A DNA stretch of 64,000 nt from a virus (IMGVR_UViG_3300021400_001148:1-64000); one strand, 5' to 3'; positions 3,293 to 63,475 are shown, counted from the stretch's first letter. The notes: generated from the sequence alone by a model not told the origin. A program made the numbers and translations.

Positions 3293-3334
3293 GCGCCGAA
3301 CCTTGCCAAAATTAAATCATTTTTTGTATATTTG
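3293..3334 (+). promoter_or_regulatory. GCGCC-N29-TAnnTTTG promoter
   Basis: GCGCC at 3293, TATATTTG at 3327 (offset 34). Confidence 0.7.
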
Positions 3335-3370
3335 TTTTCGGAAGTTAAAAACCTGAAAAATTAACAGTTT

Positions 3371-4420
3371 ATGAATCGTAGATTTGGCGTACAATCAACA
3401 GGTGTTGTCTGCCCAATTATTAGAGAGGGGGATGACATTGTCAATGTTATCACAAGTGCCATTCCAATGTCTGATATTGAAAATGGTGAAATTTTTGGAA
3501 TTACTGAAAGTGTCGTTGCAAGAGCCGCCGGCCTTTATGTGACAGTGGATGAAATTGCTGATGATATCCGGGCAAAATACGGTAATAATTCAACAATTGT
3601 TGTTGACGCTCCGATTTATTCCCGTAACAGATTTTCTATGATACTCAAAGGGATTGCAAGGGCTGCTGACATGGTAATTCTTGGTATGCCGGCGTTTGAC
3701 GAGGTAGGAAACCCCAGTGGAGTGAATCCGTTTACCGGTGTGGATATTGAAGCTTATTATAGGGAAATTATTGAATCCGAGGGTGCAAAATGTCGTGTTG
3801 TTAACGAGGTGGTTTCCGCGTTGGCTGAGCCGCACCTGCAGTTCTACCAAAATATTATCTATTGTGGGCTGCACGACTTCGACGAGTTTAGGAAAAAGTA
3901 CAAAGATGTTCCCACATACTATACTCTTGCCGATATTTGCTCAGACAAAAATCCTGATTTCGGGCTTCTTGGCTCCAACAAAGCAACAGAAGAGCGACTT
4001 AAATTGTTTCCCACCAAAGCCTTGGCTACGGAGGTGTGTTATAAGGTGCAAGAACATGTGAAGAAAGTGACAGGCAAGGATGTATATGTGTGCTGCTACG
4101 GGGACGGTTGCTTTAAAGATGCCGTTGGGGGTATCTGGGAGTTTGCCGACCCAGTTTCAATGCCCGGGTATACAAATCCTGAGGTTTTCGAGTCAACACC
4201 TAATGAAGTGAAACTCAAAGCCCTCATCGATGAGAGTGAAAATGATGAGGAGGTAAGGCGAAAAGTTGAGGAAAAGAAAGCCAATCTGAAGGGCCAGATG
4301 ATATCAATGGGTACAACACCTAGACTTATAAGAGACCTTCTTGCTTCCCTTATGGACCTCACCAGTGGTTCTGGTGATAGACAGACTCCTCTTGTTTGGG
4401 TTCGTGGCTATTTTAACTAG
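3371..4420 (+). CDS. Coenzyme F420-0:L-glutamate ligase (CofE)-like protein
   Basis: PIIREGDD...GITESVVARA...GDG...DLLASLMDLTSGSGDRQTPLVWVRGYF motifs. Confidence 0.8.
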   Translation: MNRRFGVQSTGVVCPIIREGDDIVNVITSAIPMSDIENGEIFGITESVVARAAGLYVTVDEIADDIRAKYGNNSTIVVDAPIYSRNRFSMILKGIARAADMVILGMPAFDEVGNPSGVNPFTGVDIEAYYREIIESEGAKCRVVNEVVSALAEPHLQFYQNIIYCGLHDFDEFRKKYKDVPTYYTLADICSDKNPDFGLLGSNKATEERLKLFPTKALATEVCYKVQEHVKKVTGKDVYVCCYGDGCFKDAVGGIWEFADPVSMPGYTNPEVFESTPNEVKLKALIDESENDEEVRRKVEEKKANLKGQMISMGTTPRLIRDLLASLMDLTSGSGDRQTPLVWVRGYFN

Positions 4421-4427
4421 AATAGAT

Positions 4428-4655
4428 ATGGAGAAGATGTCTTTTGATGCGTTTAAGAGCCTTCTTAAGCATGATACGGGTTTTCGCAAGGAGATGTCCA
4501 ATGAAAAAGACTTCATTGACATGGATAATGGGGTGATGCGGGTGCATACCAAGAATCTCCCAAAATATCTAGAAAAGTATATGTGTAAAGATGCGGATGA
4601 CCTCTGTAACACAATGTGGTACAGTTACGGTGTATTCTGCCAAGTAATAGACTAA
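4428..4655 (+). CDS. Hypothetical protein
   Basis: ORF tightly packed within the operon. Confidence 0.6.
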   Translation: MEKMSFDAFKSLLKHDTGFRKEMSNEKDFIDMDNGVMRVHTKNLPKYLEKYMCKDADDLCNTMWYSYGVFCQVID

Positions 4656-4658
4656 ACA

Positions 4659-4913
4659 ATGGAAATAGAAAAAATCAAAAAAGTAGAGGAACTATCCTCA
4701 CTCATTATCACGCACAAAGAGAACATTAAACTAATTGAAACTTCCAATTGCCTTATGTTTACATCGGACGGGCGGGAAGCCTCAGATAGTATCACTCTCA
4801 CTGAAAGCAAAGATACCGAAGACATAATTTCTTCAGCAAAAAAGGCGGCTATTGCGTACATTGAGAAAAAAATTAGTGAATGGGAAACAAAACTTGAAGA
4901 AATTCTCAAATAA
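4659..4913 (+). CDS. Hypothetical protein
   Basis: ORF tightly packed within the operon. Confidence 0.6.
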   Translation: MEIEKIKKVEELSSLIITHKENIKLIETSNCLMFTSDGREASDSITLTESKDTEDIISSAKKAAIAYIEKKISEWETKLEEILK

Positions 4914-4963
4914 ATTTGTATATTTGTAACATCTTTTATTAACATTTTATTTATTTAGTGAAA

Positions 4964-5452
4964 ATGGGAAACATTATTACACTTCCTGGAAGGCTCGGCA
5001 GAGATGCTGAAGTCAGGCAAACCGCCAACGGCACAAGTTTTCTCAGTTTCTCTCTGGCGGTAGATGAGAGGACTGGCAGACAGAATGAAACAAGGACTGA
5101 CTGGTACACCGTATCTTCTTTCCTCCCCAATCATGTTGGTGCTCTTGCACAGCACCTTAAGAAGGGACAACCACTTCTTGTAACTGGTAACCTCCGCCCC
5201 TCAATTTATGTGGGCCGAGACGGACAGTCTCACATTGACCTCAATGTTACGGCTTCCCAGATTGAATTCCTCAATTTTGGTAAACGCGATGATAATGGTC
5301 AGCAGCAGGCTTCAACCGCAGCAGCTCCCGCACCCGCAGCACAGGCACCAATGGCCGCTGCTCCCGCTCCAGCACCCGCCCCTTCATTCATGGAGCCACA
5401 TCCAGCAGCGCCAGTAGCAGACGCGGACCCTTCCGATGACCTTCCTTTCTAG
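4964..5452 (+). CDS. ssb: Single-stranded DNA-binding protein
   Basis: GRLGRDAEVR...FSLAV...TDWY...LKKG OB fold; Ala/Pro-rich linker; acidic DDLPF tail. Confidence 0.95.
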   Translation: MGNIITLPGRLGRDAEVRQTANGTSFLSFSLAVDERTGRQNETRTDWYTVSSFLPNHVGALAQHLKKGQPLLVTGNLRPSIYVGRDGQSHIDLNVTASQIEFLNFGKRDDNGQQQASTAAAPAPAAQAPMAAAPAPAPAPSFMEPHPAAPVADADPSDDLPF

Positions 5453-5472
5453 TAAAAAGAAATGCGGATAGT

Positions 5473-8362: not shown

Positions 8363-8365
8363 ATT

Positions 8366-13162: not shown

Positions 13163-13429
13163 AATATTCTTTTTAATATATAAATATATTCTTTTGTATA
13201 TTTGCAATATGGAAAAAGTGTTAATTAAATTTCAAGAGACTGGTAATGCACAAGAATATTACCGTCAGTGGCCGGTTGCGCTGTTGCCTATTGCCGGAGA
13301 CCATGTTTTTCTGCAAATGTCAGGAGAATCTTCGACCGTTGAATTCAAAGTGATTGAAAGAAAATTTGTTGAAAATTCGCCGGAGTTTATTGTAAAAATT
13401 AAGGTTGCCCGTATTTTTCGAAACTAATT

Positions 13430-13471
13430 GCGCCGAGAATGCGATGTTTCAAGATTTTTTTACTATTTTTG
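13430..13471 (+). promoter_or_regulatory. GCGCC-N29-TAnnTTTG promoter
   Basis: GCGCC at 13430, TATTTTTG at 13464. Confidence 0.65.
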
Positions 13472-14042
13472 CAATATGGAAAAAGATAAAGTACTGAATT
13501 CAATTAAAGAACTGCACAATGAAATTGATGCAACCATCACCGATTTGGTTTCAGCAAGACTCGCTCATGATGAACAAAAAGAAGGTAGGGCTTTGTTTAA
13601 GATGGAGTCGCTTTTAGTTGGTTGTCAGCAAGAACTGAGTTTCCTTTATGATTTCTTTTCAGAGTAGTTATGTATCCCAATCCGTTATATCAACATATCC
13701 CTATTGAAGACCAATACGAGATATTCAAAGAAAAGTGTCTTGATGAAGGTATTGAACCTCCGAGTTTTGAAAAGTTTGCAGAGAGAAATGAACCACGGGA
13801 AATGTATTAACTGTTGGTGGTATCTATCTATCAAAGGTAGAAATTACATTGTTACCAACAGCGGTATAAAAGAGAAATTCGGTAGCGGCAAATGCTATAT
13901 GCACAATGGTGATGTTGATGATTTTACAACTGTTGAGGGAGATAGTTATTGCCCAGATTATTACAATAGAAAACGCGGAAACAAAGAACAAAAGATGACA
14001 CTCGGTGACTGGATTGATAACAAAAGGAATGTTTGATATAAT

Positions 14043-16576: not shown

Positions 16577-17029
16577 ATGAAAGTGGCTAAAGCAGACCCG
16601 GAGGAATTTGAACGGGTAATGAGATTTGTCAGTTTAATGGAATCATTTTTTGAAGGTCGCTCTTTTTTTTCCTCAGAAGAAGATTGGAGGGATTGGCCTA
16701 ACGACGATGAAGATAAAAAAAGGCTTCTTGAAATTGAGAAAGACCTCGTGGATGCTGGTGAAGCAACTTGGGATGGGCATCCAGACAACCGCCTCATTCT
16801 CTTTGAATTTATCAAAGAAAAATGGAAATATACTAATTGGAGCGGTTCCTTTGGGCGAATTGTAATTGATGCAGAGGTTCTCATTGAAAATGCCTGTGAC
16901 CCTGACTTGGATTACCTTGAGTGGAAACCGGAATTGAAGGCTTTCATTGAGAAACTTGAAGAGGAGAAAAAAGAAAAATGGGCAGGAGAGTTGTTCCCGC
17001 CAGAAGAAAGTTGCGCCGAGAACCAATAA
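16577..17029 (+). CDS. Hypothetical protein
   Basis: ORF; its 3' end overlaps a GCGCC promoter box. Confidence 0.65.
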   Translation: MKVAKADPEEFERVMRFVSLMESFFEGRSFFSSEEDWRDWPNDDEDKKRLLEIEKDLVDAGEATWDGHPDNRLILFEFIKEKWKYTNWSGSFGRIVIDAEVLIENACDPDLDYLEWKPELKAFIEKLEEEKKEKWAGELFPPEESCAENQ

Positions 17030-17054
17030 TTCTCGGTACTTTTTTGTATATTTG
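17013..17054 (+). promoter_or_regulatory. GCGCC-N29-TAnnTTTG promoter with hairpin spacer
   Basis: GCGCC at 17013, TATATTTG at 17047; CCGAGAA/TTCTCGG hairpin in the spacer. Confidence 0.7.
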
Positions 17055-17058
17055 CAAT

Positions 17059-18279
17059 ATGATTGAATTAACTTTTGAAGAAATACGAAAACGCGGACTT
17101 CTCCTTTATGAATATGTGAGGGGGAGTCATGCCTATGGCCTCCAGAAAGAGGATGGGACCAGTGATGTTGATACCGCCGGTGTCTTCATGGAGCCCGATG
17201 AATGGCTTGATGGGCTGGGATATGATTACAAAGAGCAGATTGCCGACGCAAAAAATGACAATGTATGGTATTCGTTCAGGAAATTCGTGTACCTTCTCAC
17301 AACAAGCAACCCCAATGCATTGGAGGCCTTGTTTGTTCCTGACGAATGTGTTTTGTATGAGCACCCCATTATGACGGAATTTAAGAAGCATCGCAACGAG
17401 TTTCTTACAAAACAGGCGTTTGGCCCTCTTCTTAATTATTCTGTCGCTCAAATCAGGCGGGCAAGGGGATTGAATAAAAAAATCAACTGGCAGGAGGTAA
17501 CGAGGAAAGACATTCTTGATTTCTGTTACACATTCAAAAATCAAGGGTCACAACCTATTAAGGAATACCTCGGCAAACACAAACTTGACCAACGATATTG
17601 CGGGCTTGTTAATATTCCCAATATGAAAGATGTGTTCGGTGTGTACTACGACTTTGCTGCTTATTTCAAGTTTGAGAAGATTGATTCCGCTCTTGACAGA
17701 TACAGCATACTGAAGCACTACGCCGGAGGTGACTATGATTTAGAAATCCACAAAATTGAGGATAGAATTACCCACAAGGAATTTTTTCACTACAAGGGTA
17801 TTGTGGAGCCAGACCAGATTGATAAGTCCAATGAAGTGCGGCTCACATCTATTCCAAAAGGCGAGAAGCCCATCTGTTTTATGACCTACAATAAGGATGC
17901 ATACACAAAGCATTGCAAGGACTACAAGGAGTGGTGTGAATGGGTTGAGAAACGAAATCCTGAGAGGTATAAAGAAAATAAGGAAAAGGATTTCGACCGC
18001 AAAAATATGGCCCACTCGGTGAGGCTTCTCCATATGGGTATAGAACTTGCTGAAACCGGAAGGTTCAATGTTGACCGCAGCAACATTGACAGGGATTTTA
18101 TCATGAATATCCGTCTTGGTAACGCGACTTACGATGAACTCATTACCTATCTTGAGTCTAGAAAGGATGAGATGGAAAAGGCGATGGCCAACTCGACACT
18201 TCCGGATGCGGTTGATATCAATAAGATAAATGACATCGTTATTGAAATTAGAAAAAAATTCAGAGAAGAATATGAATAA
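17059..18279 (+). CDS. Pol-beta-superfamily nucleotidyltransferase (YcgL/RlaP-like)
   Basis: GSHAYGL...SDVDTAGVF, NPNALEALF and KNMAHSVRLL motifs. Confidence 0.85.
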   Translation: MIELTFEEIRKRGLLLYEYVRGSHAYGLQKEDGTSDVDTAGVFMEPDEWLDGLGYDYKEQIADAKNDNVWYSFRKFVYLLTTSNPNALEALFVPDECVLYEHPIMTEFKKHRNEFLTKQAFGPLLNYSVAQIRRARGLNKKINWQEVTRKDILDFCYTFKNQGSQPIKEYLGKHKLDQRYCGLVNIPNMKDVFGVYYDFAAYFKFEKIDSALDRYSILKHYAGGDYDLEIHKIEDRITHKEFFHYKGIVEPDQIDKSNEVRLTSIPKGEKPICFMTYNKDAYTKHCKDYKEWCEWVEKRNPERYKENKEKDFDRKNMAHSVRLLHMGIELAETGRFNVDRSNIDRDFIMNIRLGNATYDELITYLESRKDEMEKAMANSTLPDAVDINKINDIVIEIRKKFREEYE

Positions 18280-19375: not shown

Positions 19376-19417
19376 GCGCCGGAAGCCGGAAACTTCCGGC
19401 GGATTTTTGTATATTTG
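19376..19417 (+). promoter_or_regulatory. GCGCC-N29-TAnnTTTG promoter with hairpin spacer
   Basis: GCGCC at 19376, TATATTTG at 19410; GCCGGAAG/CTTCCGGC hairpin. Confidence 0.7.
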
Positions 19418-19903
19418 CAAAAACGAAATTTATGACAATTGTACTTGGTATAGTCCTTTTTTTGGGATTTCTTAGTTCGATACTCCTTGTATTGAGTATC
19501 GTTGCGGATTTGGTATCAACAAGCAACATAACCGCGTTCTCGGAGGAACTGATTAAACAACTCAATGCAAACTCCGGGATGAGGGTTCTTTATGCTTTCG
19601 TGGCTTCCTTGTGCTGGACTTTGGCTATCCTGTGGCTATGAGGTATCGAAAGAGTTTGCTGAACAAGCCCCCAATAGAGTTGACCGATGAAGAATTGAAG
19701 GTAATGGGGAGGCACTTTTTAAAGCATCCATTGCAAGAAAAACCTATTCGTAATCTTCATAAATGCTTATATTGCCAGCATCTCATATGGTGGGATAACC
19801 TCGGTACAGTAGAATGGAAATGCCTTGAAAAAGACAAGATTTTTAATTGTAAGCAAATAACACACGCAAGATATTGCGAAGATTATAAAAGAGATGAGAT
19901 ATT

Positions 19904-23602: not shown

Positions 23603-23944
23603 ATGGAGAAGAACAAGTTTTTTGTGATAGTTTATGAACCGAACAGTAAAAAGTTCGAAACTTATGATGTGTTACCATATTTCCGCGATGAATACAAGCG
23701 TCGCGCCAATGGGGAGCGATATGATAAAAAGGTGCCTGAGACTTTTGAAGAGTTCCGTGAGTTTGTAAAAGACGAAGGAAAGTATCAGTTCTGGGCCAGG
23801 TGTGAGTATGAGATTATATTGGCAGACTGGCCGGTTCAGAAAACAGAGAAAAAAATAGATGTATGGGACCAAATCGAAAACAATCTTGATTTGGTGGCGA
23901 GGCTTCTTAAAGAGGATATAGAGAACTGCGCCGAAGATGAGTAG
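23603..23944 (+). CDS. Phage hypothetical protein
   Basis: YQFWARCEYEII..WP...KIDVWDQI pattern. Confidence 0.65.
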   Translation: MEKNKFFVIVYEPNSKKFETYDVLPYFRDEYKRRANGERYDKKVPETFEEFREFVKDEGKYQFWARCEYEIILADWPVQKTEKKIDVWDQIENNLDLVARLLKEDIENCAEDE

Positions 23945-23969: not shown

Positions 23970-24903
23970 CCATATGAAATATAGTGTATATATCGTGAAC
24001 TTGGACACGGATGATGCCATGTTTGTAAAGAGTTTTAGCAGCGAAAAATCCGCCAAGGCCTATATCAAAAGGCATGGTGGTACACCACCCGACGGGAACT
24101 CTGTATATATTGTGCAAAAAGAGGAGAATGTATGAGGTTTCACATTTATGGGCAGAAAAGCCTCATTGAACTCCCTAACGGTACAACAATAGAAGACCTG
24201 CGTTCGCTTGCAGTATTTAACCGAATTATTAAAAAATACTTAAAACTTTTAAAACTTGAGAACAATGGGAAAAAAAGATAAAGTCTTTAGGTTTCGCATA
24301 CTGGAAAAGACAAGGCGAAGTCTTTCGGATGACTTAGAAACAATCGTTGAGGACAAGGAGTACTACCTTTATAAAAAAGTGCCATGGTTTTTGGGCAGCT
24401 GGCTGGAAGTGTATCCTCAAGAGTATGATGGGGACTATTTTTTAAGTTTTGAAGATGCGCAAAGACGTGCATTTGAAGTGGCCGAAGATGAAAAACATTA
24501 CAGAATACATTACAGAATAGAAAAAAAGTTAAAACAACAACTTAAAACAACCGTAAAAATAGTCGACGATTTTTCAACCCCAGTTGAACCATGACGAACC
24601 AAAACTGTTTGAGATATGACACGCAGAGAAATGTTAATCCAAGAGGGTGCAAGAAATGCATATAGGGGTGTTTCCAATGAAGCAGTATCAGCGAGGACTG
24701 GTTACGCTCGAGGCTATAAGGAAGGATACCACCAGGCCGTGGCCGACACATGGGATTGGTTTGCTAAACATGTTACAGCCAGTATTGGGAAAAATATGGT
24801 TATTGATTTGCCCACATATTCCGATGTAATGAACAACTACTTGGAATATGTTGAAGTTGACCCCATGCTTAGGTGTAAAAAAGAAGATTAAACTATTTGA
24901 GAT

Positions 24904-26019: not shown

Positions 26020-27233
26020 AAGAACAGAAAGACTATTGGGGTGCGAGATTGAATTTCCGCACTTCGGCGCGAATTATCCCGATGCGAGATGCATAGACGG
26101 ATATCTGTGGGACTTGGATTCTTGCGATGGTGACTATCTAACTATTGGCGGTGATGACCCGTGTCCATTCTGTAATACTGAGGAATGGCTTAAGGGAGTT
26201 CTTGATGATGAATCTTTCGCAAGTCGTGAAGATGCTTTGGCTTGGGTTGATAAAATGAGAAAGAGATATGAGTAAAAGAGCAGAAAAAGCAGCGATGAGA
26301 GTTCTCCCTGATTATCCGCTAAACGGAAATATTAAAGTTGATTTGGCACTTTATAGGACGCTATATCAGCGCGGCTACGAGCAGGCGGAGAAAGAAACGA
26401 TTGAAAGAGCTGTAGAATATATCAAGTCAACGAAAATTTTTGGTAGATGTTTTCCCGAAGATTTTCGCGAAGCTTTGGAGAAAGAATAACAGACAAACCA
26501 AATTAAAGAAAAAATAATGATACACTATGAGGCAGGACTTGGAAGTTGGACATATGACTTCCTTGATAGAATTTTTGATACTGATGTTAGAATCGGAGTG
26601 CCCTATGTAATTAACAAAGATGAATATTTCGAGATGTTGAAGGCATATGGCATTGAATCTAGAATTAAAAATACAGCTGTTGTCACTTTTTCGGCTGATG
26701 TAATTTATGAAGACAAAAATGGCAACACCATCTACAGCGAAACCCTTCCGGAAGAGCATAAAATTGCTCACCGTGCTTTTTTTGTTTTTCCAAAGGGCTC
26801 ACCCGAAGGGAGTGGCGATTTTTATGATTGCATCCAGTTTGGATATTACAATAATGAAAAACTAAGTTTAGAAAATTACGAAGAGTTCGTTCGTGGTTTG
26901 CTAAGGTGCGTAAAATACCCCTCAATCCAGCATAGTAAGGATTTGATATGTGAAAAAATACAGGAACTTGAAAAAACAACGCACGAAATATCTGAACTCA
27001 ACAAAATTGTATACTAACATGGCAATGGAAGAATAGTTAAAAATTATGAGTAATATTATTCCAAATTTGGTTTGTCCAAAATGTATGAAATCATTTGAAG
27101 ATTGTGAGGATTATTCCTCATATCATAATAGAGTAAGATATATATGCCCACATTGTGGATATGTTGCCGATAGTATTGAATTTGAAACTTCTTATAAATG
27201 GCATCCAATACATAAAGATTTATCTGATTAAAT

Positions 27234-27275
27234 GCGCCTATTCTTTTGAGAATAGGTTTTTTTTTAGTATATTTG
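27234..27275 (+). promoter_or_regulatory. GCGCC-N29-TAnnTTTG promoter with hairpin spacer
   Basis: GCGCC at 27234, TATATTTG at 27268; CCTATTCT/AGAATAGG hairpin. Confidence 0.7.
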
Positions 27276-27462
27276 CACTATGACAGTTGGGGAGTTAATA
27301 GAAAAGCTAAAGGAATTTCCACAAAACATGCCCGTAGCGTGCTGTGGGGAGATGTATTATCCACCCGAAAATTATAAGGTAGAGGTAACACGAAAGACAT
27401 GGGTGGACAGTAACTACCCCTATAATCGTCCAGATTTTGAATATATTAATTTAGAATAGAAT

Positions 27463-28207: not shown

Positions 28208-28564
28208 ATGGTGATAGAAGATTATATCAGTTTTGAAACGGCAAAACTCCTGAAGAAAAAGGGATTTTCATCAGATAATTGTCACACGGCGTATGATAAA
28301 AACGGTGGTTTCTTTTGGTATGGTGACTACTCAAAAGACAGAAGAGATGTTATAGATGCTCCAACTCTTCAAATGGCAATGAGGTGGCTGAGGGAAGTAC
28401 ATAACATCTTCATTCAAGTTGAGTTATACAGTAAGTACGACAACTATTGCTTTGAGCTTTTCCAGAACACACATAGGCTAATAATAGAGCATCGCGAGGT
28501 GTACAATTCTTATGAAGAATCCTGCGAAGCAGCTATCAAGTATTGTCTTGAAAATTTGATATAG
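28208..28564 (+). CDS. Phage hypothetical protein (EDYISFETAKLLK.KGF...APTLQMAMRWLRE family)
   Basis: Module shared with 19904-20869. Confidence 0.7.
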   Translation: MVIEDYISFETAKLLKKKGFSSDNCHTAYDKNGGFFWYGDYSKDRRDVIDAPTLQMAMRWLREVHNIFIQVELYSKYDNYCFELFQNTHRLIIEHREVYNSYEESCEAAIKYCLENLI

Positions 28565-29739: not shown

Positions 29740-30026
29740 ATTACCTACGAATGAATTCGTGGGCTTGACGGAAGCCCGAGGCTCCCATCGATTGGGCGAT
29801 TGACAACGCCCTGCCGCTCAGGAACTTTAGCGTGCCGTCGGACGGAGCTCTATGTTGTAGGTTACCGTGTTCATCTGTGTTCATTATATAAATAGTCTTT
29901 TGCGCCGAAAAGTTCTGTTTTTCCGCAAAAATTTGTATATTTGCGGAAAAGAAATGTTTAACAAACAAAAGGCTAACCGCAATTCCTCCCAACGGCTAAA
30001 GCCGTGGGTTTCCTTGCGGTGATATC
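29736..30026 (-). mobile_element. Non-autonomous IS200/IS605 cassette, copy 3 (apparent internally deleted tnpB, carrying divergent promoters)
   Basis: Same ends as copies 1 and 2 but a different interior: minus-strand TATTTATA plus an MNTVTYNIELRPT remnant, and a plus-strand GCGCC-N29-TATATTTG. Confidence 0.8.
29902..29943 (+). promoter_or_regulatory. GCGCC-N29-TAnnTTTG promoter inside cassette 3
   Basis: GCGCC at 29902, TATATTTG at 29936. Confidence 0.7.
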
Positions 30027-47304: not shown

Positions 47305-47507
47305 TATGGAAGACACTACTGGAAGATGGAAGTTCATTGAACTCACCGACGGAACTATTGTTAATTCCTATGACATTATACTTTTGAATGTCGATACTGG
47401 CGAGGATGGTGAAAAGGCGTACAAACTGTACCTTCGGGGAAAAAAGATGACACTTGCCCTCACCAAAGATGATTACGACATCATTAGGAATTTTCTCTGT
47501 GGTTAAT

Positions 47508-47549
47508 GCGCCGGAAATGGAAAAGAGAAAGATATTTTAATTATATTTG
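47508..47549 (+). promoter_or_regulatory. GCGCC-N29-TAnnTTTG promoter
   Basis: GCGCC at 47508, TATATTTG at 47542. Confidence 0.7.
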
Positions 47550-47553
47550 CAGC

Positions 47554-47949
47554 ATGGAAAAACACGAGGGAAAATATTATATTCATGTCGAGTACACAAC
47601 TGGAGACTCATTCGGTAGTCAGGAAACCTATGAAGATGTGGACTACGGTTGGAATGATTTTGAAATTGCGGCGATAAACGCCAAGGCAATGGCTCAGCAC
47701 GCGAGAATATATGAGGAATCAGAATACAGCACAAAGGAAAAAACTGAAAACAAGTGTCGCGGACACTGGTGGTTGGCTAAGCCTGAGAACAATTACAGTA
47801 TAATCGACGAAAGGATTTATCTTACACTCGATAATGGGGACAAAGTTCTCTATCGCTGCCCTTGGTGTGGGTATTTTGAGCGGTTTCACAGTGCTGAAGT
47901 CAGAATAAATGAAAAACAATGCAAATTCACGAAATATGACAATTGTTGA
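47554..47949 (+). CDS. Phage hypothetical protein
   Basis: YTTGDSFG...WCGYFERFH pattern. Confidence 0.65.
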   Translation: MEKHEGKYYIHVEYTTGDSFGSQETYEDVDYGWNDFEIAAINAKAMAQHARIYEESEYSTKEKTENKCRGHWWLAKPENNYSIIDERIYLTLDNGDKVLYRCPWCGYFERFHSAEVRINEKQCKFTKYDNC

Positions 47950-49846: not shown

Positions 49847-50932
49847 ATGGATAAAAAGAAACAAAATTTTAAAAGTGAGATGAGTTTAAAGGCTCGGGGT
49901 GGACGAATAAAAATGTCTAATCTCCAGTCCCCCGCACCGTCGTTTTCAACCGAGGAGATGGACGTGGTAGAAGAAGAAAAACCTGCGGTGACTGATGTTT
50001 GGAATGATGCGATTCCGGGCGATGAGAGTTGTACGAAGGGTCCGGACACCAATTTTACAGTTTCACAATGGTCTTCTGTTGACGGTTGCATCATCCCCGT
50101 TTCCAATACAATGGACAGGCTGGAGAAGGGATACTACTCCATTAACTTTTCCAACCAACTTGGCATGTATTTCACTAAGGAAAAAATCGAACTAAACAAG
50201 TTGTATCGTTTGCCCAACAATGCAACAGACCTTATACTTAATGACATTTCCAAATTCTGGACATTGGAGGAGACATATAAGAAGTACCATAGGGTTTTCA
50301 GAAGAAATTATCTTCTTTATTCTGCACCGGGAACCGGTAAGACAAGCCTCATCAATCTTATGTGTGAAGAACTTATCAATGTTTATAACGGTATTGTCTT
50401 TTCACTTTCCACGGAAGCTCAGATTGAGTCATTTCCTGAGGCGGTAAGGCGAATCAGGAAAATTGAGCCCGACCGCAAGATTATTGCCATCATCGAAGAT
50501 ATCGACACTTTCGCACAAGGTTCTTCAAGGCTCAACACGCTTATTCTTAATATCCTTGACGGAAACCTCAAACTCAGCGGAATTGTGACCATCGCCACAA
50601 CCAACCACATCGAATATCTCGAGGACCGTTATACCAACAGGCCCTCTCGTTTTGACAGGGTTGTGGAGTTCCCTCTTCCTAATGCTGAGAGCCGAAAGAT
50701 GTTCATTGAGAAAACAGTTCTTCCGGAAGACCTCAAGAAGATTAATATTGACGAATGGGTGGCTAAGACCGAAGGGTTTACAATCGACCATATCAACGAA
50801 CTCATTCTTCTATTCTTTGTCTTTGGGCATACTGAGGAAGAGTCGTTTGAGACTTTGTTCGCAATGACCAAAAGCAAGGGAGCCCTCACGAATAAGACCA
50901 GCGTAACAAAACGAGACCTTGGCTTCTCATGA
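49847..50932 (+). CDS. AAA+ ATPase
   Basis: Walker A APGTGKTS, Walker B IIEDID, LNILDG, TTNH and RPSRFD. Confidence 0.9.
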   Translation: MDKKKQNFKSEMSLKARGGRIKMSNLQSPAPSFSTEEMDVVEEEKPAVTDVWNDAIPGDESCTKGPDTNFTVSQWSSVDGCIIPVSNTMDRLEKGYYSINFSNQLGMYFTKEKIELNKLYRLPNNATDLILNDISKFWTLEETYKKYHRVFRRNYLLYSAPGTGKTSLINLMCEELINVYNGIVFSLSTEAQIESFPEAVRRIRKIEPDRKIIAIIEDIDTFAQGSSRLNTLILNILDGNLKLSGIVTIATTNHIEYLEDRYTNRPSRFDRVVEFPLPNAESRKMFIEKTVLPEDLKKINIDEWVAKTEGFTIDHINELILLFFVFGHTEEESFETLFAMTKSKGALTNKTSVTKRDLGFS

Positions 50933-51310
50933 TGAACGAATTTCTTTCTCGAGACTACCCCTCCTCTATTGAAAAGTGGAGGCGTCTTGGGCTTTTAGAA
51001 GACCTGCGAGGGTCAATCGAGGTAAGTGTTGCCGAAAACTTAGAACGGATGTCCTTGTATTTGGGAGATTTGGAGGGGAAGGATGTGTATGTAATGGGGT
51101 ACAACTTAAGTTTTAGTATTTTTCCAGCTATACGAAGAATATGCTCACAAAATGTTGATTATCAAATAGAAGAACCGGAAAAGTTTTTCAACTACTACAA
51201 GGAGTGGTTTCGCGAACGCATCGAGTCATTCGAAAAAATGCCCAATATTGACCCCGAGGCACAAGCGGTATATATGTTTTGCGAACATACGCTGAAGATT
51301 TTAAGAAAAT

Positions 51311-51352
51311 GCGCCGAGAGTGAATAACTCTCGGACTTTTTTTGTATATTTG
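51311..51352 (+). promoter_or_regulatory. GCGCC-N29-TAnnTTTG promoter with hairpin spacer
   Basis: GCGCC at 51311, TATATTTG at 51345; CCGAGAGT/ACTCTCGG hairpin. Confidence 0.7.
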
Positions 51353-51356
51353 TAAT

Positions 51357-51968
51357 ATGAAAAACGAGTTTTGTACAAAAATAGAACATCCGGAAAAAAC
51401 CTATCTGATTTCCGACACACATTTTTGGCATACAAATATTCTAAAATATTGTAGCCGGCCATTCGCTTCTGTAGAGGAGATGAATGCAGCCCTTATTGAG
51501 AACTGGAACAATGTTGTTGGTCCGGATGACCACATTTACAGTCTCGGGGATTTCTGTTTTGGTAATGTAGAAAAATGGAATTCAGTCCTCGCTCCTGGTG
51601 TATTGAACGGCCACATTCATCTTGTCCTCGGAAACCATGACCCCGAGAGGCTTTACCGTGACGGTGTTATGCGGGAAAGGTTCGATGAAATCTGTTTCCA
51701 AAAGTACCTTTTGGCCGATGGATGGGGAATATACCTCAATCACTTTCCCTTCCTCGAGTTCTCCAATAATTTCGACCACCATGTATGTCAGGCTTATGGC
51801 CATGTACACAGTGGTCCCAACAATGTCGGGGCTCTCACCAATGAAAGGCTGAAGATGGTGCAATGGAATCAGTACGATGTGGGTGCTGATAACAATAATT
51901 ATGGACCGATTTCGGTTTTGGAATTTTTGAACATAATTAAAGAAAGAAGGGAAGCGTATGGAAAATAA
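51357..51968 (+). CDS. Calcineurin-like phosphoesterase
   Basis: SDTHFWH, LGDF, GNHD, HFP and GHVH motifs. Confidence 0.9.
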   Translation: MKNEFCTKIEHPEKTYLISDTHFWHTNILKYCSRPFASVEEMNAALIENWNNVVGPDDHIYSLGDFCFGNVEKWNSVLAPGVLNGHIHLVLGNHDPERLYRDGVMRERFDEICFQKYLLADGWGIYLNHFPFLEFSNNFDHHVCQAYGHVHSGPNNVGALTNERLKMVQWNQYDVGADNNNYGPISVLEFLNIIKERREAYGK

Positions 51969-54392: not shown

Positions 54393-54396
54393 CAAT

Positions 54397-54723
54397 ATGA
54401 AGAAATTTTTATGTATTGTATTAGGATTGATAATTGTGTCTGCTTGCCAATTTACATCCAGAGAACGCAATTATCGTTGTGAAATTGTTTACAAAATCTA
54501 TTATCCCGGGGAAACGGTGATGTGTAAACGAACATTTATGGGGCATGAAACGGCTCGCTATTATCTTGATTCGTCACGTGGCACCAATTACCTTTGGGTT
54601 GAATTTGTCAACCAGCCGGAGCGTATTCCCAGACTCAGTGACATCGACGAATGTATTCTTTCAACCACAGCCCCAGTAAGGGTAATATCCTTTAACAAAG
54701 AAAAAATAAATGATGGAAATTAA
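54397..54723 (+). CDS. Putative lipoprotein
   Basis: MKKFLCIVLGLIIVSAC signal peptide with lipobox. Confidence 0.55.
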   Translation: MKKFLCIVLGLIIVSACQFTSRERNYRCEIVYKIYYPGETVMCKRTFMGHETARYYLDSSRGTNYLWVEFVNQPERIPRLSDIDECILSTTAPVRVISFNKEKINDGN

Positions 54724-56299
54724 TCCCCTTCTTTTAATTGATTTTTACAAAGCGGTTCACGGAACGATGATTCCGCAGAACATGGTAAAAAGTGTAAGTT
54801 ACTATACACCCCGCAGGTCCCGCGTTGAGAGATGGGACCAGGTTGTGTTTTACGGTCTGCAGGCTTTCTGTAAGACTTGGCTAATTGACTACTTCAATGC
54901 CAACTTCTTCCAGAAAAAGAGGGAAGATGTGGTTGAAGAGTATCGTCGTGTACTTGACAATTCTTTTGGAAAGGGAATATACAATCTTGAAAGGGTGGGG
55001 CATCTCCATGATTTGGGATATCTGCCAGTTGAGATTGTGGCACTTCCCGAGGGAACAAAGGTGGACATGGGCGTGCCTATTTTCGGTATCACCAATACCC
55101 ACCCCGATTTTGCGTGGCTTCCACAGGCGTTGGAAAGTCTTATTTCAGCCGAGTTGTGGTACCCTATGATTTGTGCTACTGTGGGTAATACATACAGGGA
55201 GGTTGTCAATAAGTATTATGATGAGACTTGTGACGATGATGCCCCAAGGCGCAGGGCACTCGGTAATTTCGATTTTCGTGGCGATGACGGACTCGATGCA
55301 TCATTGAAAGCCGCAGGCGGATGGCTTCTTTCTTTTGTCAACACCGCGACTGTCCCGGCGATACCTTATATGGAAAAGATGTACAATTGTGACTGTGAGA
55401 AGGATGAAGTTGGCTTTGGTGCGGTCTCTACTGAACATTTTGTGATGTGTTCCAACAGTGCGTATGACACCAAGCATAATCCGGATTACGAGTATGCAGA
55501 TATCGACCCTCGTCGGGAGAGAGTCTTCTTGAAAAAACTTCTGACTGAACTTTATCCTCACACCTCGTTCAGTTGTGTATGCGATAGTTACGATTATTGG
55601 AATGTGGTGAAAAACATCCTTCCGACCCTTAAGGAGGAGATTCTTGCTCACGACGGTTGTTTCCTTGTCCGTGGAGACTCGGGGGACTGTGTAAAGGTTG
55701 TTACTGAAACGGTTTTTGAACTTTGGAAGATTTTCGGCGGAACAGTGAACTCCAAGGGATACAAGGTTCTGGACCCTCATGTAAAGGCACTTTATGGGGA
55801 TAGTATAACTGTTCAGCGTGCAGGTCAGATTTATCAAATCCTCAAGGACAATGGGTTTGCCGCCCAGAATGTAAGTCTTGGTGTTGGTAGTTTTAGTATG
55901 CATTGTATTGAAGAAGTAGTTGAAAAAGATTTGGGCTTAGGCTATACATTAAAAGAAACAGTTCTTTCACCTTTTACTAGAGACACTTTTTCAAGCGCCA
56001 TCAAAAGCGTTTACGCTGAATTCAGGAATGAGGACGGAACCATTGACAAAGTTCCGATTTACAAAGACCCCAAAACTGACCGCGAAAGTGGATTTTCCTT
56101 CAAGAAAAGCCAGAAGGGGTGCTGTGAGGTCTTCTGGCGGGACAAATGGAACCAACGACTTGCATATACTGACGGACTAACTTGGGATGAGGCACATAAT
56201 GATAGTAATTTTCTTCAGCCAGTGTTCCGTGATGGCGTCCTTCTCAGGGAAACAACCCTGAAAGAAATAAGGGTGAGACTCAATAATGGGGAGTTTTAA
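54710..56299 (+). CDS. Nicotinamide phosphoribosyltransferase-like protein (Nampt/NadV; candidate Namat)
   Basis: DFYK..H, FDFRG, STEH.VMC, CDSYDYW, RGDSGD, YGDSIT, GVGSF, KDPKTD and KKSQKG motifs. Confidence 0.88.
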   Translation: MMEINPLLLIDFYKAVHGTMIPQNMVKSVSYYTPRRSRVERWDQVVFYGLQAFCKTWLIDYFNANFFQKKREDVVEEYRRVLDNSFGKGIYNLERVGHLHDLGYLPVEIVALPEGTKVDMGVPIFGITNTHPDFAWLPQALESLISAELWYPMICATVGNTYREVVNKYYDETCDDDAPRRRALGNFDFRGDDGLDASLKAAGGWLLSFVNTATVPAIPYMEKMYNCDCEKDEVGFGAVSTEHFVMCSNSAYDTKHNPDYEYADIDPRRERVFLKKLLTELYPHTSFSCVCDSYDYWNVVKNILPTLKEEILAHDGCFLVRGDSGDCVKVVTETVFELWKIFGGTVNSKGYKVLDPHVKALYGDSITVQRAGQIYQILKDNGFAAQNVSLGVGSFSMHCIEEVVEKDLGLGYTLKETVLSPFTRDTFSSAIKSVYAEFRNEDGTIDKVPIYKDPKTDRESGFSFKKSQKGCCEVFWRDKWNQRLAYTDGLTWDEAHNDSNFLQPVFRDGVLLRETTLKEIRVRLNNGEF

Positions 56300-58677: not shown

Positions 58678-59642
58678 ATTTAATAAGACCAAGTTACGAA
58701 ATAATTGAGCAGGGCATGGGACTGCAGGGAGTCTATGATATCATAGAAAACGCCGGGAAAACTTCGTATAAAAGCCCAGTCAAGGGTGGTGATGATGCAA
58801 AAAAATTCGTAGAGACTCGTTCCAATGAAAAACATGGTGCGGTTCTAGAATTCGGCACTGTTTACCTTGGTTTCGAGGATGCGGTGACCATCTTGCCGTC
58901 ACAACAAGCATACATTGATGAAGCGGTCGCTTTTTATGAGAAAAACAAGTTCTCGGTTGTCAACGCTGTTCCCGGAATCGGATGGTTCGTCACTACGAAT
59001 TTCCGCGTCATTGTTGAGAATCACCGAGAGGAAGATTTACTTTACCTCTATTGTAACAATCACCCATCAGGGCATCATGAAAAGCGATACTGCGTAAGGT
59101 TCACTCTCGACAGGTTTACCGGCGAGGAATTCCTTCGTCACCGTGTGTTCTCCTTCTGCAGGGAAAGTACGAGATACTGCAACTATTCGAAGGACAAGTT
59201 CAATAACAACATTACATTCGTAATACCCCCGTGGATTGGAAAGGAAGACCTTGCTGAAGGTGAAAATATACAATACTGGGATGGTGATTGGGTTGATATG
59301 AATGAAATGAAAATCATCGCTTCCGACCGTTCATCGAAGGTCTCCCACTGGCTTAATGCAGTTGCAAGAAGCGAAATGGATTACATGGAACTTGTGTCCG
59401 GCCATGGAGAAGAAAAGGCGTGGACACCGCAAATGGCCAGAACAATTCTGCCGTGCGCCATCAAGTCACCACTTGCAATGTGTGGTTTTGCCCACGACTG
59501 GATTCACTTTTTCCACTTGAGGGTGTTCGGAACCACTGGAGCCCCCCACCCACAGGCAAAGGAACTGGCAGAGCCACTTATGAACGAGTTTATTAAAAGG
59601 GGATACTTAACAGAAGAAGAAATTAAAGCTAAAATAGTATGA
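58674..59642 (+). CDS. thyX: FAD-dependent thymidylate synthase
   Basis: HGAVLEFG, LRHRVFSFCRESTRYC, ARTILP and W.HFF.LR...PHPQ motifs. Confidence 0.93.
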   Translation: MNLIRPSYEIIEQGMGLQGVYDIIENAGKTSYKSPVKGGDDAKKFVETRSNEKHGAVLEFGTVYLGFEDAVTILPSQQAYIDEAVAFYEKNKFSVVNAVPGIGWFVTTNFRVIVENHREEDLLYLYCNNHPSGHHEKRYCVRFTLDRFTGEEFLRHRVFSFCRESTRYCNYSKDKFNNNITFVIPPWIGKEDLAEGENIQYWDGDWVDMNEMKIIASDRSSKVSHWLNAVARSEMDYMELVSGHGEEKAWTPQMARTILPCAIKSPLAMCGFAHDWIHFFHLRVFGTTGAPHPQAKELAEPLMNEFIKRGYLTEEEIKAKIV

Positions 59643-59901
59643 AACAAAAGTTATTTTTTGTAGTGTATGTGGATGTTTCCCGTATTGCCATTGAAGACAC
59701 TGCGGGATACATTAATAATGTGGCAAAATCTCTTTGCCCCAGTCCAAGAGAGGATGCTGAGTTCTATTTTATTCCAAACACACAGGGGGAAAGTAAAATC
59801 GAATGTCTTAACCCCGTAAGAGTTTCCGATGATGAGTATGCGGAAGTTGAAAAAAATGTGAGGGAGATGAGCCAGAAGGTTAATGAGTGTCTTGCCGGTT
59901 T

Positions 59902-59943
59902 GCGCCAGAAAGGCAAGTGTGAAACTAAAAATGGTTAATTTTG
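59902..59943 (+). promoter_or_regulatory. GCGCC-N29-TAnnTTTG promoter
   Basis: GCGCC at 59902, TAATTTTG at 59936. Confidence 0.6.
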
Positions 59944-60098
59944 TATGTCAAAGGAAGAGTTCAGACAAAATGCAGCCATTTCGGCATTGCAAGGTGTGAT
60001 TGAGGCCAAATATGGCGTCGCTCTTGAAGTAGACACCGACCTCGCTGCCGACATGGCAATACGACTGGCCAACAGTTTAACAGAAAAATATTTTAACA

Positions 60099-60542
60099 AT
60101 GAAAAGTTACAAGGGTAATATTGTACCGGAAGAAGGTACTGTTTTTGTTTTCGGGTCTAATCCAGAAGGCCGTCACGGCGCCGGTTCCGCTGCTGTAGCG
60201 GTCAAGCAGTTCGGTGCAAAATATGGACAGGGCGAAGGGCTGCAGGGCAATGCATACGCACTTCCCACAACGGAACTCAGGTGGCAGATGCGTGACAAGT
60301 ATTCGAGATATTCAATGAGCCGGGATACTATTGTCGAGAACATCAAACGAATGTACGATTGTGCCCGTCAGAACCCGGACAAAAAATTCAAGGTGGCTTA
60401 CAGGAACCAGCCGGATGAGGTCACACTTTGCGGGTATGCAGGGAAGGACCTTATGGGTATGTTCAAAGAGGCAAAGGGCGATGGTGAATACCCCGAGAAT
60501 ATTTATTTCTCCGAAGAGTGGGTTAACTCCGGGTTACTTTAA
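60099..60542 (+). CDS. A1S_2505-family phage protein (macrodomain-like)
   Basis: VFVFGSN.EGRHGAG.A..A...FGA..GQGEGLQGNAYALPT motif. Confidence 0.7.
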   Translation: MKSYKGNIVPEEGTVFVFGSNPEGRHGAGSAAVAVKQFGAKYGQGEGLQGNAYALPTTELRWQMRDKYSRYSMSRDTIVENIKRMYDCARQNPDKKFKVAYRNQPDEVTLCGYAGKDLMGMFKEAKGDGEYPENIYFSEEWVNSGLL

Positions 60543-61336: not shown

Positions 61337-61375
61337 AAATTCTTTTTTCTATAAATAGATGCAGGCAAAACAATT

Positions 61376-61417
61376 GCGCCGAGGTTATCAAACTTTACTT
61401 TTTTTGCTGTATTTTTG
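61376..61417 (+). promoter_or_regulatory. GCGCC-N29-TAnnTTTG promoter
   Basis: GCGCC at 61376, TATTTTTG at 61410. Confidence 0.65.
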
Positions 61418-61443
61418 TGATGAGAATTAAAAAAATATAAATT

Positions 61444-61731
61444 ATGAGCATTTTTTGGATTTTTGTGATTTCATTCATTTGTGGTATTGTAAGTTCTATC
61501 GGCTTCAAGATATTTGCCGACAGTGTTACTGAGAAGTCTGAGGATAAGCGGTTCATCGCGTGGCTTTTCATTACTCTTGCTTCTATTGTGATGATGATTG
61601 TGTATGCTGATATTTTTACTTCCCCACTCGAAAAGAAACTGAAAACTTTGGAGGAAACTATCCAGAGTATTCAAAAGGATGAAACTCTCCAGAGTATTCA
61701 AAACGAAAAAGAAGAAACACTATACCTTTAA
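61444..61731 (+). CDS. Two-TM membrane protein
   Basis: Two hydrophobic segments; ETxQSIQ duplicated. Confidence 0.65.
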   Translation: MSIFWIFVISFICGIVSSIGFKIFADSVTEKSEDKRFIAWLFITLASIVMMIVYADIFTSPLEKKLKTLEETIQSIQKDETLQSIQNEKEETLYL

Positions 61732-61804
61732 ACCCATTGAAAGGTTAGTTTTACATTTTCCACATATTTATGATATGTGGAATAATTTTTTAATATAACC
61801 CATA

Positions 61805-62323
61805 ATGAGACTTACAGAAGAAGACCTTGTATATTTGGTAAACAGAACAGTTTCCCTACTGAAAGAGGATGTTAAAGTCAGTGAAGATTTCTGGCAGACA
61901 CTTGATGGTTCGGCGGCCGGCTATGAGAAAACCGAAGTGAAAACCGAAGACATGCCTAACGATGACAGTGATTCGGATGCGGAAGAAATCACAGATACCG
62001 AGTCTGGGAATGTGAGCGAACCCGAACATAAGGAAAACAATGCCCCGGTTGATGATGCGGACGATTCGGCAACGGATGTTGTGGGCACCGATGACAACGA
62101 TTCAGCACAAACCAAGAGTACAACCGGAAGTCAACTTGGGCAGGGCGGTGACCCGTTCAGTCAGAAGATAGGTGACAGTTCCTCAGAGAGCGACAATGGG
62201 GAAAGTACTGACACCAAAAACGACGGTTGGGGCAGTTCGGAAAAACTTGACAGTGTTGTCGGAGGGGTTATTGACAATTTCAAAAAAGAAGTCAATGAGG
62301 CCCGCAGGCACCAAAGACAATAA
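61805..62323 (+). CDS. Acidic low-complexity protein with LTEEDL..LLKE propeptide-like N-terminus
   Basis: N-terminus resembles that of 2325-2741; TATTTAT at 61765. Confidence 0.65.
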   Translation: MRLTEEDLVYLVNRTVSLLKEDVKVSEDFWQTLDGSAAGYEKTEVKTEDMPNDDSDSDAEEITDTESGNVSEPEHKENNAPVDDADDSATDVVGTDDNDSAQTKSTTGSQLGQGGDPFSQKIGDSSSESDNGESTDTKNDGWGSSEKLDSVVGGVIDNFKKEVNEARRHQRQ

Positions 62324-62358
62324 GAAAAATCCCTCGGAGTTCTCTGGGGGATTTCTTT

Positions 62359-62856
62359 TTAAGGGAGGAAAATTAACACCACTAGAAGCAGTACTGCAAT
62401 CATCAGGGTATCAAACTGTTTTCTCTCAGTGTTTTTCATTGTATTATAATAGGTTTCCTCATAATCGTGGAAAATACTGATTCTGTATTCCCTCTGCCAG
62501 TCCTTCTTAATACATTCAAGACTATGTGAAATATTATTTGTTTTCAGAAAAACATAGTTCAACAGACTTACTACGAAGTTGTAAATTGCAATGGCCCATA
62601 CGAACAGATTTGCCAACGGAGTCCACGGGGCAACAGGAACCATCCCGAATAAAATCAAGACAATACCATACAAAGCAATGCCGGCATCAGACAGCCCACA
62701 TAAAATATCAGATTTTACGAGCCTGTCCCTGAATGCCGTCGGTGCACCGCGATGGGACGGTATTACCATAAAATCCTTAGCCGCAGTGTATCCAAAAATC
62801 AGGAAATGAAGCCCGCCGAGCAGTAGAAATACACAACCTATTATTGTCTCTATCAT
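62359..62856 (-). CDS. Multi-pass membrane protein
   Basis: Four hydrophobic segments; minus-strand TATATTTG promoter upstream. Confidence 0.7.
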   Translation of the reverse strand: MIETIIGCVFLLLGGLHFLIFGYTAAKDFMVIPSHRGAPTAFRDRLVKSDILCGLSDAGIALYGIVLILFGMVPVAPWTPLANLFVWAIAIYNFVVSLLNYVFLKTNNISHSLECIKKDWQREYRISIFHDYEETYYNTMKNTERKQFDTLMIAVLLLVVLIFLP

Positions 62857-62925
62857 AAAGTTTTCTTTTGGCAAATATACAAAAAAATCCCCGGCATTGA
62901 AAGCCGGGGATAAACAACAAGGGAA

Positions 62926-63408
62926 TCACTTGTTGAGTTGGTTTTCGTAGACATAGGCAATAATCGCAATGGCCTCGGAGATTGAAATCTTGTTGTCGTC
63001 GGCGAGGGCTTTTGCGAGAAGAGTTGAAAGAGTTGCCCAAGTGGTTGCGCTGAGGCTCTCCGGAAGGAGTTTGATGGCCTCCTGTGCGGCGACAATCTTT
63101 TCCGCAAGCGTAGCCTTTTCAGCAACATTGGATGCAAGATTGAGAGAATCGATGATGATAGGAAGATTTTTTTCCAGCCATTTCCTTACGGCAGGTACAT
63201 ATTTCGCACCGTATTTGGTATCAACAGTTCTAAGAATTGTCTCTACGATGTCCGCAGCCGCAGATTCGTTGAAGTCTTTGATGGTGTTTATTACGCTGAT
63301 AGCAATGGGGGCGTATTTCACCACGAAATCATCGACCTTTGATGATGTACTTTTAAACCAAGTCACAATCTTGGACCACAGGTTTTTGATTGTTTCAATG
63401 AATTTCAT
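62926..63408 (-). CDS. Hypothetical protein, probably late-expressed
   Basis: Start MKFIETIK follows minus-strand TATTTATA at 63424-63431. Confidence 0.65.
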   Translation of the reverse strand: MKFIETIKNLWSKIVTWFKSTSSKVDDFVVKYAPIAISVINTIKDFNESAAADIVETILRTVDTKYGAKYVPAVRKWLEKNLPIIIDSLNLASNVAEKATLAEKIVAAQEAIKLLPESLSATTWATLSTLLAKALADDNKISISEAIAIIAYVYENQLNK

Positions 63409-63433
63409 AATAATGCATTTTCTTATAAATATT

Positions 63434-63475
63434 GCGCCCAGCCGGTTAGTTTTTCCCATCCTTTTTGTATATTTG
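63434..63475 (+). promoter_or_regulatory. GCGCC-N29-TAnnTTTG promoter
   Basis: GCGCC at 63434, TATATTTG at 63468. Confidence 0.7.

Follow-up and report, generated by a model that had tools for sequence, protein, structure and literature searches.

The first 64,000 nucleotides of the viral contig IMGVR_UViG_3300021400_001148 (hereafter the window) contain 13 promoters in which a short G/C-rich box, GCGCC, stands at a fixed distance upstream of TAnnTTTG, the -7 box of Bacteroidota promoters. The window opens a single contig of 354,809 bp, with direct terminal repeats and 41% G+C, which is the genome of a jumbo phage of rumen-type Bacteroidales. The box is a real and strongly supported feature of this genome: its letters are nearly invariant, its distance from the -7 box is exact, the combination stays at background level in the bacteria searched, a clade of related phages retains it, and more distant sister phages carry other elements in its place. 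Together with the unrelated sequences that separate the two boxes, these properties point to a DNA site that is read along with the promoter by something the phage supplies. We put at about one half (0.5) the probability that the box is an upstream promoter element at which a putative phage-supplied factor acts, most likely as an activator.

Letters, spacing and context of the box

The genome holds 217 copies of GCGCC and 429 of TAnnTTTG. The two pair 67 times at an offset of 34 nt, counted from start to start, and three times at an offset of 35; between offsets 5 and 79, no other value holds more than one pair. The fixed offset of 34 nt, which a sequence-only reading had described for the window, is thus enriched genome-wide, and 29 bp separate the box from the -7 box downstream of it, constant to within 1 bp. 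A scan of the window for GCGCC-N29-TAnnTTTG finds exactly the 13 sites named by that reading, every one of them on the + strand; 100 shuffles that preserved dinucleotides contained no match. The longer form TGCGCC is present at 12 of the 13, the exception being the site at 3293, where C precedes the box.

The letters of the box are as strict as its position. At offset 34, 67 boxes are exact and only five carry one mismatch (GCGCT three times, GCACC and GCGGC once each), four of these variants lying in the gene array described below. The spacers were said to be unrelated, and their central 19 nt indeed have a mean pairwise identity of 0.33, barely above the 0.27 of shuffled sequence. Because the spacers are essentially unrelated, the box sites are not recent duplicates, and box and spacing are therefore held by selection rather than by duplication; shuffles and spacers together rule out chance or duplication as the source of the pattern. 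Two pairs of sites, 106536/348210 and 51311/89499, are exceptions to the lack of spacer similarity. One box promoter has a second copy about 242 kb away in the opposite orientation, the flanks and spacer of the two being identical (106511-106577, +; 348169-348235, -).

The consensus of 30 offset-34 sites outside the array reads w-TTGCGCC-g-R-R-a, then a variable stretch, then TTTTTG-TATATTTG-CAA. The spacer therefore has position-specific bias at its two ends, in gRRa just past the box and in TTTTTG just before the -7 box. An unmutated probe of the box has the sequence TTGCGCCGAGA.

A further 44 promoters in the genome lack the box. They share the core TTTTTG-TAnnTTTG with the box promoters, whose position weight matrices show the box and TAnnTTTG, and they have no conserved upstream element. 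The -7 box of these promoters is the Bacteroidota primary-sigma consensus TAnnTTTG; the -33 element is missing, as the place where its TTTG would stand (19-21 bp before the -7 box) holds less than 0.3 bits in box and box-less promoters alike. That box promoters have no -33 element is consistent with an RNA polymerase that is modified or aided by a phage factor. Between offsets -40 and -25, the A/T fraction is 0.46 in box promoters versus 0.68 in box-less ones. The box promoters of the window and the genes that follow them, where aa stands for amino acids and ORF for open reading frame, are these:

3293..3334, +, box promoter cGCGCC-N29-TATATTTG; gene 3371-4420, F420-0:gamma-glutamyl ligase-like, ATG 36 nt past the -7 box
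13430..13471, +, box promoter TGCGCC-N29-TATTTTTG, leaderless-type, ATG 4 nt past the -7 box; gene 13476-13667, a 63-aa ORFan; preceding ORF stop at 13427
17013..17054, +, box promoter; spacer hairpin and T-run, -10.4 kcal/mol; box in the 3' end of ORF 16577-17029 (...CAENQ, then stop)
17059-18279, +, gene of promoter 17013, RlaP-like nucleotidyltransferase; ATG 4 nt past the -7 box
19376..19417, +, box promoter; box at the base of a terminator-like hairpin, -17.0 kcal/mol, then a T-run; gene 19432-19641, 69 aa
23928..23969, +, box promoter in the 3' end of ORF 23603-23944 (...CAEDE, then stop); gene 23974-24135, ATG 4 nt past the -7 box
27234..27275, +, box promoter; spacer hairpin and T-run, -10.4 kcal/mol; preceding ORF stop at 27231; gene 27280-27459, ATG at 4 nt
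29902..29943, +, box promoter; no ORF of at least 40 aa over the next 83 nt; transcript would begin with the repeated hairpin CCCAACGGCTAAAGCCGTGGG, and its product is possibly a small RNA or a long leader
47508..47549, +, box promoter immediately past the stop of ORF 47306-47506; gene 47554-47949, 131 aa, ATG 4 nt past the -7 box
51311..51352, +, box promoter in the 3' end of ORF 50929-51327 (...CAESE, then stop); spacer hairpin and T-run, -14.0 kcal/mol
51357-51968, +, gene of promoter 51311, metallophosphoesterase; ATG 4 nt past the -7 box; no box at the site orthologous to it in sister phage G003
54351..54392, +, box promoter; hairpin and T-run, -15.5 kcal/mol; gene 54397-54723, 108 aa, then NAMPT-like gene 54710-56299
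59902..59943, +, box promoter whose box lies wholly in ORF 59639-59938, the TAA stop of that ORF supplying the TA of the -7 box TAATTTTG
59945-60118, +, gene of promoter 59902; ATG 1 nt past the -7 box
61376..61417, +, box promoter (TATTTTTG); gene 61444-61731, 95 aa
63434..63475, +, box promoter; gene from 63491, NADAR domain, continuing beyond the window end
876, 2751, 4919, 7484, 13197, 34047, 35910, 39316, 44637, 46618, 48573, 57848, 61830 and 62879 (-), box-less promoters of the window

Four of the box-less promoters, 876, 2751, 34047 and 35910 (TATATTTG), had been singled out as lacking the box, and they do lack it, as do about ten more. The two classes are interleaved within one co-directional block, and the genes behind them are alike in kind. 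Those driven by box promoters are accessory (the F420-ligase-like, RlaP-like, metallophosphoesterase and NADAR proteins, the NAMPT unit and small ORFans), and those behind box-less promoters are accessory too (SAM synthetase, Hsp70, a tRNA); both classes are non-structural. A different intergenic motif, TATTTATA/TATAAATA, has 21 of its 50 intergenic copies concentrated at 200-250 kb of the genome, a region with almost no box promoters, and this distribution fits TATTTATA as a putative third promoter class for other genes.

At seven of the 13 window sites, an ATG begins exactly 4 nt past the -7 box, and at one site 1 nt past it. The window positions of this arrangement, TTTG-nnnn-ATG, are 13472-13478, 17055-17061, 23970-23976, 27276-27282, 47550-47556, 51353-51359 and 54393-54399, and the same arrangement occurs at the box-less promoters 13197 and 34047. 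This placement, seen in both promoter classes, implies putatively leaderless mRNAs. In Bacteroides thetaiotaomicron, only about 3.7% of 5' untranslated regions are shorter than 10 nt (PMC7366714). If the A of such an ATG is taken as the transcription start, TAnnTT would occupy -12 to -7, like the E. coli TATAAT. On that start, GCGCC would lie at -46 to -42, centred near -44, within an element that spans roughly -47 to -38.

The box is also kept where it overlaps coding sequence. The recurrent C-A-E termini that the sequence-only reading had noted are present, three upstream ORFs ending in ESCAENQ, ENCAEDE and RKCAESE before the stop. These C-A-E-x-x-stop ends (17012-17029, 23927-23944 and 51310-51327) belong to ORFs that look unrelated and arise from all three reading through the box in one frame. 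The box at 59902 lies within its ORF (59639-59938) in a frame other than that of the C-A-E ORFs. The units are packed very tightly, and at five window sites the stop of the upstream ORF falls 1-8 nt 5' of the box.

Many copies of the box reside in an array at 117.7-150 kb on the - strand, which consists of about 39 small gene units, each with a box. Here the box forms the 3' arm of a 29-bp palindrome, GGCGCA-N5-GGCTGCC-N5-TGCGCC, with a median hairpin energy of -14.3 kcal/mol. The arrays of related phages carry a different hairpin, GGGGCAGCCCC, just 5' of a free-standing GCGCC at the same offset. Because the hairpin of the relatives differs and is separate from the box, it is the box and its spacing that are conserved, and not the palindrome.

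The hairpin CCCAACGGCTAAAGCCGTGGG and its variants stand directly 3' of three promoters with no nearby ORF start (window 29944-30020; genome 66131-66170 and 348160-348200, -). Rfam has no match at these elements, for which a role as small RNA or leader is possible. Paralogous proteins of 118-153 aa are encoded at 28208-28564 in the window and at genome positions 88549-88974, 110068-110529, 113205-113606 and 148081-148476. Three of the five members of this family were scanned, and these match phrog_12005, of unknown function; box-using relatives have the family too, and no member has a match in G003.

Distribution in bacteria, related phages and sister phages

The searches of possible hosts covered the composite motif, that is, the box together with the -7 box. 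The strict form TGCGCC-N25-TTTGTATATTTG, searched in 185,579 prokaryote genomes, one per species, gave 27 single matches and never two in one genome. The looser form TGCGCC-N29-TAnnTTTG had 72 matches in 201 Bacteroidales genomes (about 720 Mb), at most four per genome, with about 45 for its reversed control, versus 68 forward matches in the 0.355 Mb of this phage alone. Host promoters thus do not carry the composite, which is rejected as a host signal. In IMG/VR, the strict form had one match, and strict and looser scans together returned only single matches at chance level.

Related phages that use the box were recovered from metagenomes. A scan yielded 57 stretches, of which 12, amounting to 87 kb, were taken as box-using relatives, either because they resemble this phage or because they carry several boxes of their own (L066, L079, L101 and L105, which have no blastn alignment to it). 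Proteins shared with this phage are 24-79% identical in amino acid sequence, mostly 35-65%. Of the GCGCC/TAnnTTTG pairs in the 12 fragments with offsets between 10 and 69, 30 are at offset 34 and a single one is elsewhere; 17 of the 30 are additional to the matches by which the fragments were ascertained. Their boxes are preceded by T or A, and the flanks differ from those of this phage. Box and exact spacing are thus kept while spacers and flanks change, and a clade of related phages uses the box. With the composite at background in hosts and retained in relatives, the claim of a promoter-linked, phage-specific signal is borne out.

The more distant sister phages G001, G002 and G003 have no box at all. 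G003, a complete genome of 372,793 bp, shares 142 of 401 crude gene calls with this phage at about 35-45% identity. It carries AATGTTAAAAAT, mostly as the A/T-rich palindrome TTAACA-AA-TGTTAA, at offsets 35-24, close to the place of the box, followed by a canonical -33 TTG; the 29 copies lie mostly in the homologous array. That array (290.9-312.6 kb) comprises about 25 small units headed by TTAACA-AA-TGTTAAAAAT, the -33 TTG, TATCTTTG and a conserved leader, cantgttgaattaaaa. In G001 and G002, the element is TTAACA-N5-TAAsAAAA plus ATTTGG. The -33 element is present in the sisters G003 and G001. The orthologous G003 promoter that follows the AAA ATPase unit consists of a terminator and a -7 box, with no GCGCC.

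Between relatives, membership in the promoter classes is conserved in part and switched in part. None of the three phages compared has the box at its SAM synthetase promoter, and two genes that are box-driven here are operon-internal in relatives.

The word composition of the genome touches on the box as well. Outside masked promoter copies, GCGCC is depleted about twofold (120 observed versus 222 expected), and so is GCGCT (93 versus 194); neither depletion is found in G003. Avoidance of spurious boxes could be the cause of the GCGCC depletion, but GCGCT is equally depleted, so that a general avoidance of GCGC, as a restriction site, accounts for it as well. GATC is absent from all 354,809 bp, with 0 copies of every GATC-containing 5-mer versus 327-648 expected, and ACGT-containing words are strongly depleted; GATC depletion in G003 is only partial. 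The GATC/ACGT depletion is probably restriction avoidance.

What may read the box

In the mechanism we favour, a trans-acting protein brought by the phage would bind the box, wTTGCGCCgRRa, and help RNA polymerase at promoters that have no -33 element. That polymerase would carry either the host primary sigma or the phage's own host-like sigma. Some 70 transcription units would then form a regulon, distinct both from the roughly 44 box-less promoters that share its core and from the TATTTATA class. The position of the box is that of UP elements, of class II activator sites and of the sites of the phage activators Mor, C and Ogr. We infer that a protein would bind the box, activate rather than repress, and mark a time class; a temporal regulon defined by the box is plausible.

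Several results weigh against this proposal. Genome profile searches at E <= 1 returned no match to AsiA (PF09010), to the Mor and Ogr/Delta profiles (PF08765 and PF04606) or, in six frames, to MotA (PF09114; the profile of the MotA C-terminal domain was not searched), and an HTH_3 profile search found nothing either. Ten genes are common to the box-using relatives and absent from G003 (a HAD/RNA-repair protein, an exonuclease, an MGS-like protein, ClpP, a glycosyltransferase and ORFans), and none bears a DNA-binding signature; as a route to the factor, gene content was abandoned, G003 being too distant (142 of 401 gene calls at about 35-45% identity). The core of box promoters is as good as that of box-less ones, so that unaided RNA polymerase might fire from them and the box could repress or only tune. 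The classes are interleaved and both drive similar accessory genes, so that a time class finds no backing in a split of functions. Nor is membership stable between relatives, one gene being box-driven in three relatives and box-less here.

The phage encodes two proteins of the sigma-70 family, each with regions 1.2, 2 and 4 and with Sigma70_r2 and Sigma70_r4 domains in profile searches:

genome 169686-170705, -, 339-aa sigma; behind a box-less promoter; recognition helices diverge from host
genome 337220-337966, +, 248-aa sigma; without a promoter motif of its own; region 3 mostly missing

The 248-aa sigma lies downstream of the box promoter at 334345, in the same co-directional string, past an SbcC-like gene. 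Its helices are host-like (WIRQSI; LTKERVRQIKE) and identical in 13 aligned homologues that range from 100% to 50% identity. Hundreds of homologues reside on contigs of jumbo-phage size, those of 70-80% identity on contigs of up to 361 kb, and the IMG/VR phages with 40-50% identical homologues have no box. With helices invariant across the 13 homologues and box-less carriers in IMG/VR, the 248-aa sigma is rejected as reader of the box; it may read TAnnTTTG during infection. In the 339-aa sigma, the region 4.2 helix is GPMRVKQVEK, versus ETRSVSREYN in the G003 orthologue and TRERVRQIKE in the host, and region 2.4 is WYIRRNMGFY versus WWIRQSILQA in the host.

RNA polymerase might read the box directly, through a phage sigma or a phage-made modification and with no separate activator, a reading that we regard as rather unlikely. 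Two full sigma-70-family proteins are at hand, the region 4.2 helix of the 339-aa sigma differs exactly between phages with different upstream elements, and the host sigma plus two phage sigmas would make three sigmas for three promoter classes (box, box-less and TATTTATA). However, sigma-70-family factors space their -35 and -10 elements by 16-21 bp, a distance fixed by holoenzyme geometry. The 29-bp gap exceeds any such spacing by about 10 bp and puts the box too far upstream for sigma region 4. The 339-aa sigma, being divergent in region 2.4 too, may not read TAnnTTTG at all, and the 248-aa sigma, with its constant host-like helix and box-less IMG/VR carriers, cannot set box specificity. 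The 339-aa sigma remains a candidate reader to which the geometry objects. It is unlikely, too, that the box is an operator at which a phage repressor shuts off a subset of otherwise constitutive early promoters. Such a role would suit the full core TTTTTG-TAnnTTTG of box promoters, apparently sufficient at the 44 box-less ones, and the palindrome of the 117-150 kb array, which has a typical operator shape with the box as one arm. Yet a site near -44, upstream of the core contacts of polymerase, is poorly placed for steric repression, the box is a single non-palindromic half-site outside the array, and the palindrome is not what is conserved, since the array hairpin of relatives stands apart from the box.

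A role at the 3' end of the upstream transcript, as terminator base or processing site, or as the recombination joint of mobile cassettes of the promoter-early stem-loop (PeSL) type, seems improbable. A strong hairpin with T-run, of which the box is the stem base, occupies the spacer at 10 of 31 non-array sites and at 6 of the 13 window sites, the array box is the 3' arm of its hairpin, and the sites lie between small ORFans, like PeSL cassettes (PMC2839356). But 21 of the 31 non-array sites have no hairpin, hairpins precede box-less promoters about as often (11 of 44), and relatives retain box and spacing without the hairpin partner. Given the unrelated spacers, an exact 29-bp distance to the next promoter would also be needless. 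Hairpins being optional and equally common before box-less promoters, the box as a by-product of terminators is rejected. Least credible, to the point of being very improbable, is a host regulator that binds TGCGCC and is exploited by the phage. No phage factor was found and hosts were searched for the composite rather than the box alone, which would leave room for such a regulator; against it, the composite is at background in the 201 Bacteroidales and 185,579 species genomes, and sister phages, presumably of similar hosts, use another element at that position.

Relation to known systems and significance

At the middle promoters of phage T4, a MotA box is combined with a sigma-70 -10 element, and sigma is appropriated by MotA and AsiA (PMC2988021; PMC6755090). 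The T4 box lies 12 +/- 1 bp from the -10 element and is centred at -30 (PMC2988021). The sequence-only reading had drawn this parallel, which holds for the logic and fails for the geometry. As in T4, a box found only in the phage is joined to a stringent host-type downstream element while the host upstream element is missing, dozens of copies stand among box-less promoters, and the spacing is fixed to within 1 bp. Unlike in T4, the distance is 29 bp and the position about -44, the host is a member of the Bacteroidota with a TAnnTTTG -7 box, and no MotA or AsiA homologue is present; the T4 box also tolerates many changes, whereas this one is near-invariant (67 exact versus 5 variants).

PeSL cassettes of T4-type phages (Arbiol et al., 2010; PMC2839356) offer a second comparison. 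They too are compact units of terminator and promoter amid small non-essential genes in plastic genome regions, and one third of the sites here join hairpin and T-run to a promoter, the rest having none. PeSLs mediate recombination, gene shuffling or mini-circles; what was seen here is promoter turnover between relatives. A PeSL, however, is an ordinary strong promoter of host type and has no box peculiar to the phage, and the hairpin here is an optional part that sits between box and -7 box. Compared with the primary-sigma promoter of Bacteroidota, -33 TTTG/-7 TAnnTTTG (PMC7366714), the -7 box is the host consensus, but the -33 element is missing, TTTTTG abuts the -7 box, and GCGCC stands one helical turn upstream of the -33 place.

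In location, -38 to -58, the box resembles UP elements, class II sites and the Mor/C and Ogr/Delta sites. The site of P2 Ogr and P4 Delta is a dyad centred near -55, and Mu Mor and C likewise act from upstream. The array dyad here is centred near -56, but the non-array site is not a dyad, no Mor or Ogr/Delta homologue was found in the phage, and the G/C-rich box is unlike the A/T-rich UP elements even though its position fits. Full-text literature searches on TAnnTTTG in connection with phage or sigma turned up no description of this box, in line with the sequence-only reading, which knew of none.

To our knowledge, almost nothing is known of how phages of the Bacteroidota, the dominant phylum of gut and rumen, take over transcription in their hosts. 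The regulatory logic is already familiar from T4; the value of the present case lies in a new host phylum, a new geometry and, likely, a new protein. New as well are the box-using clade, the alternative elements of its sisters, the missing -33 element of box-less promoters, and two sigma genes of which the 248-aa one is excluded as specificity factor. The cis half of a takeover system is sharply defined by a near-invariant box of 5-6 bp in about 70 copies. As a probe, it is at hand to pull out the trans factor; it may also supply an orthogonal promoter part for engineering Bacteroides, and it allows genes of these uncultured jumbo phages to be assigned to regulons. More tentatively, and as something possible rather than probable, a clade of Bacteroidales jumbo phages may possess a form of promoter redirection unrelated to MotA/AsiA. 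In it, a phage protein or the 339-aa sigma would read the near-invariant G/C box one helical turn upstream of -33, replacing the host upstream contact, and the sisters would read TGTTAA-type boxes. If true, this would be the first redirection system of its kind described for the RNA polymerase of Bacteroidota.

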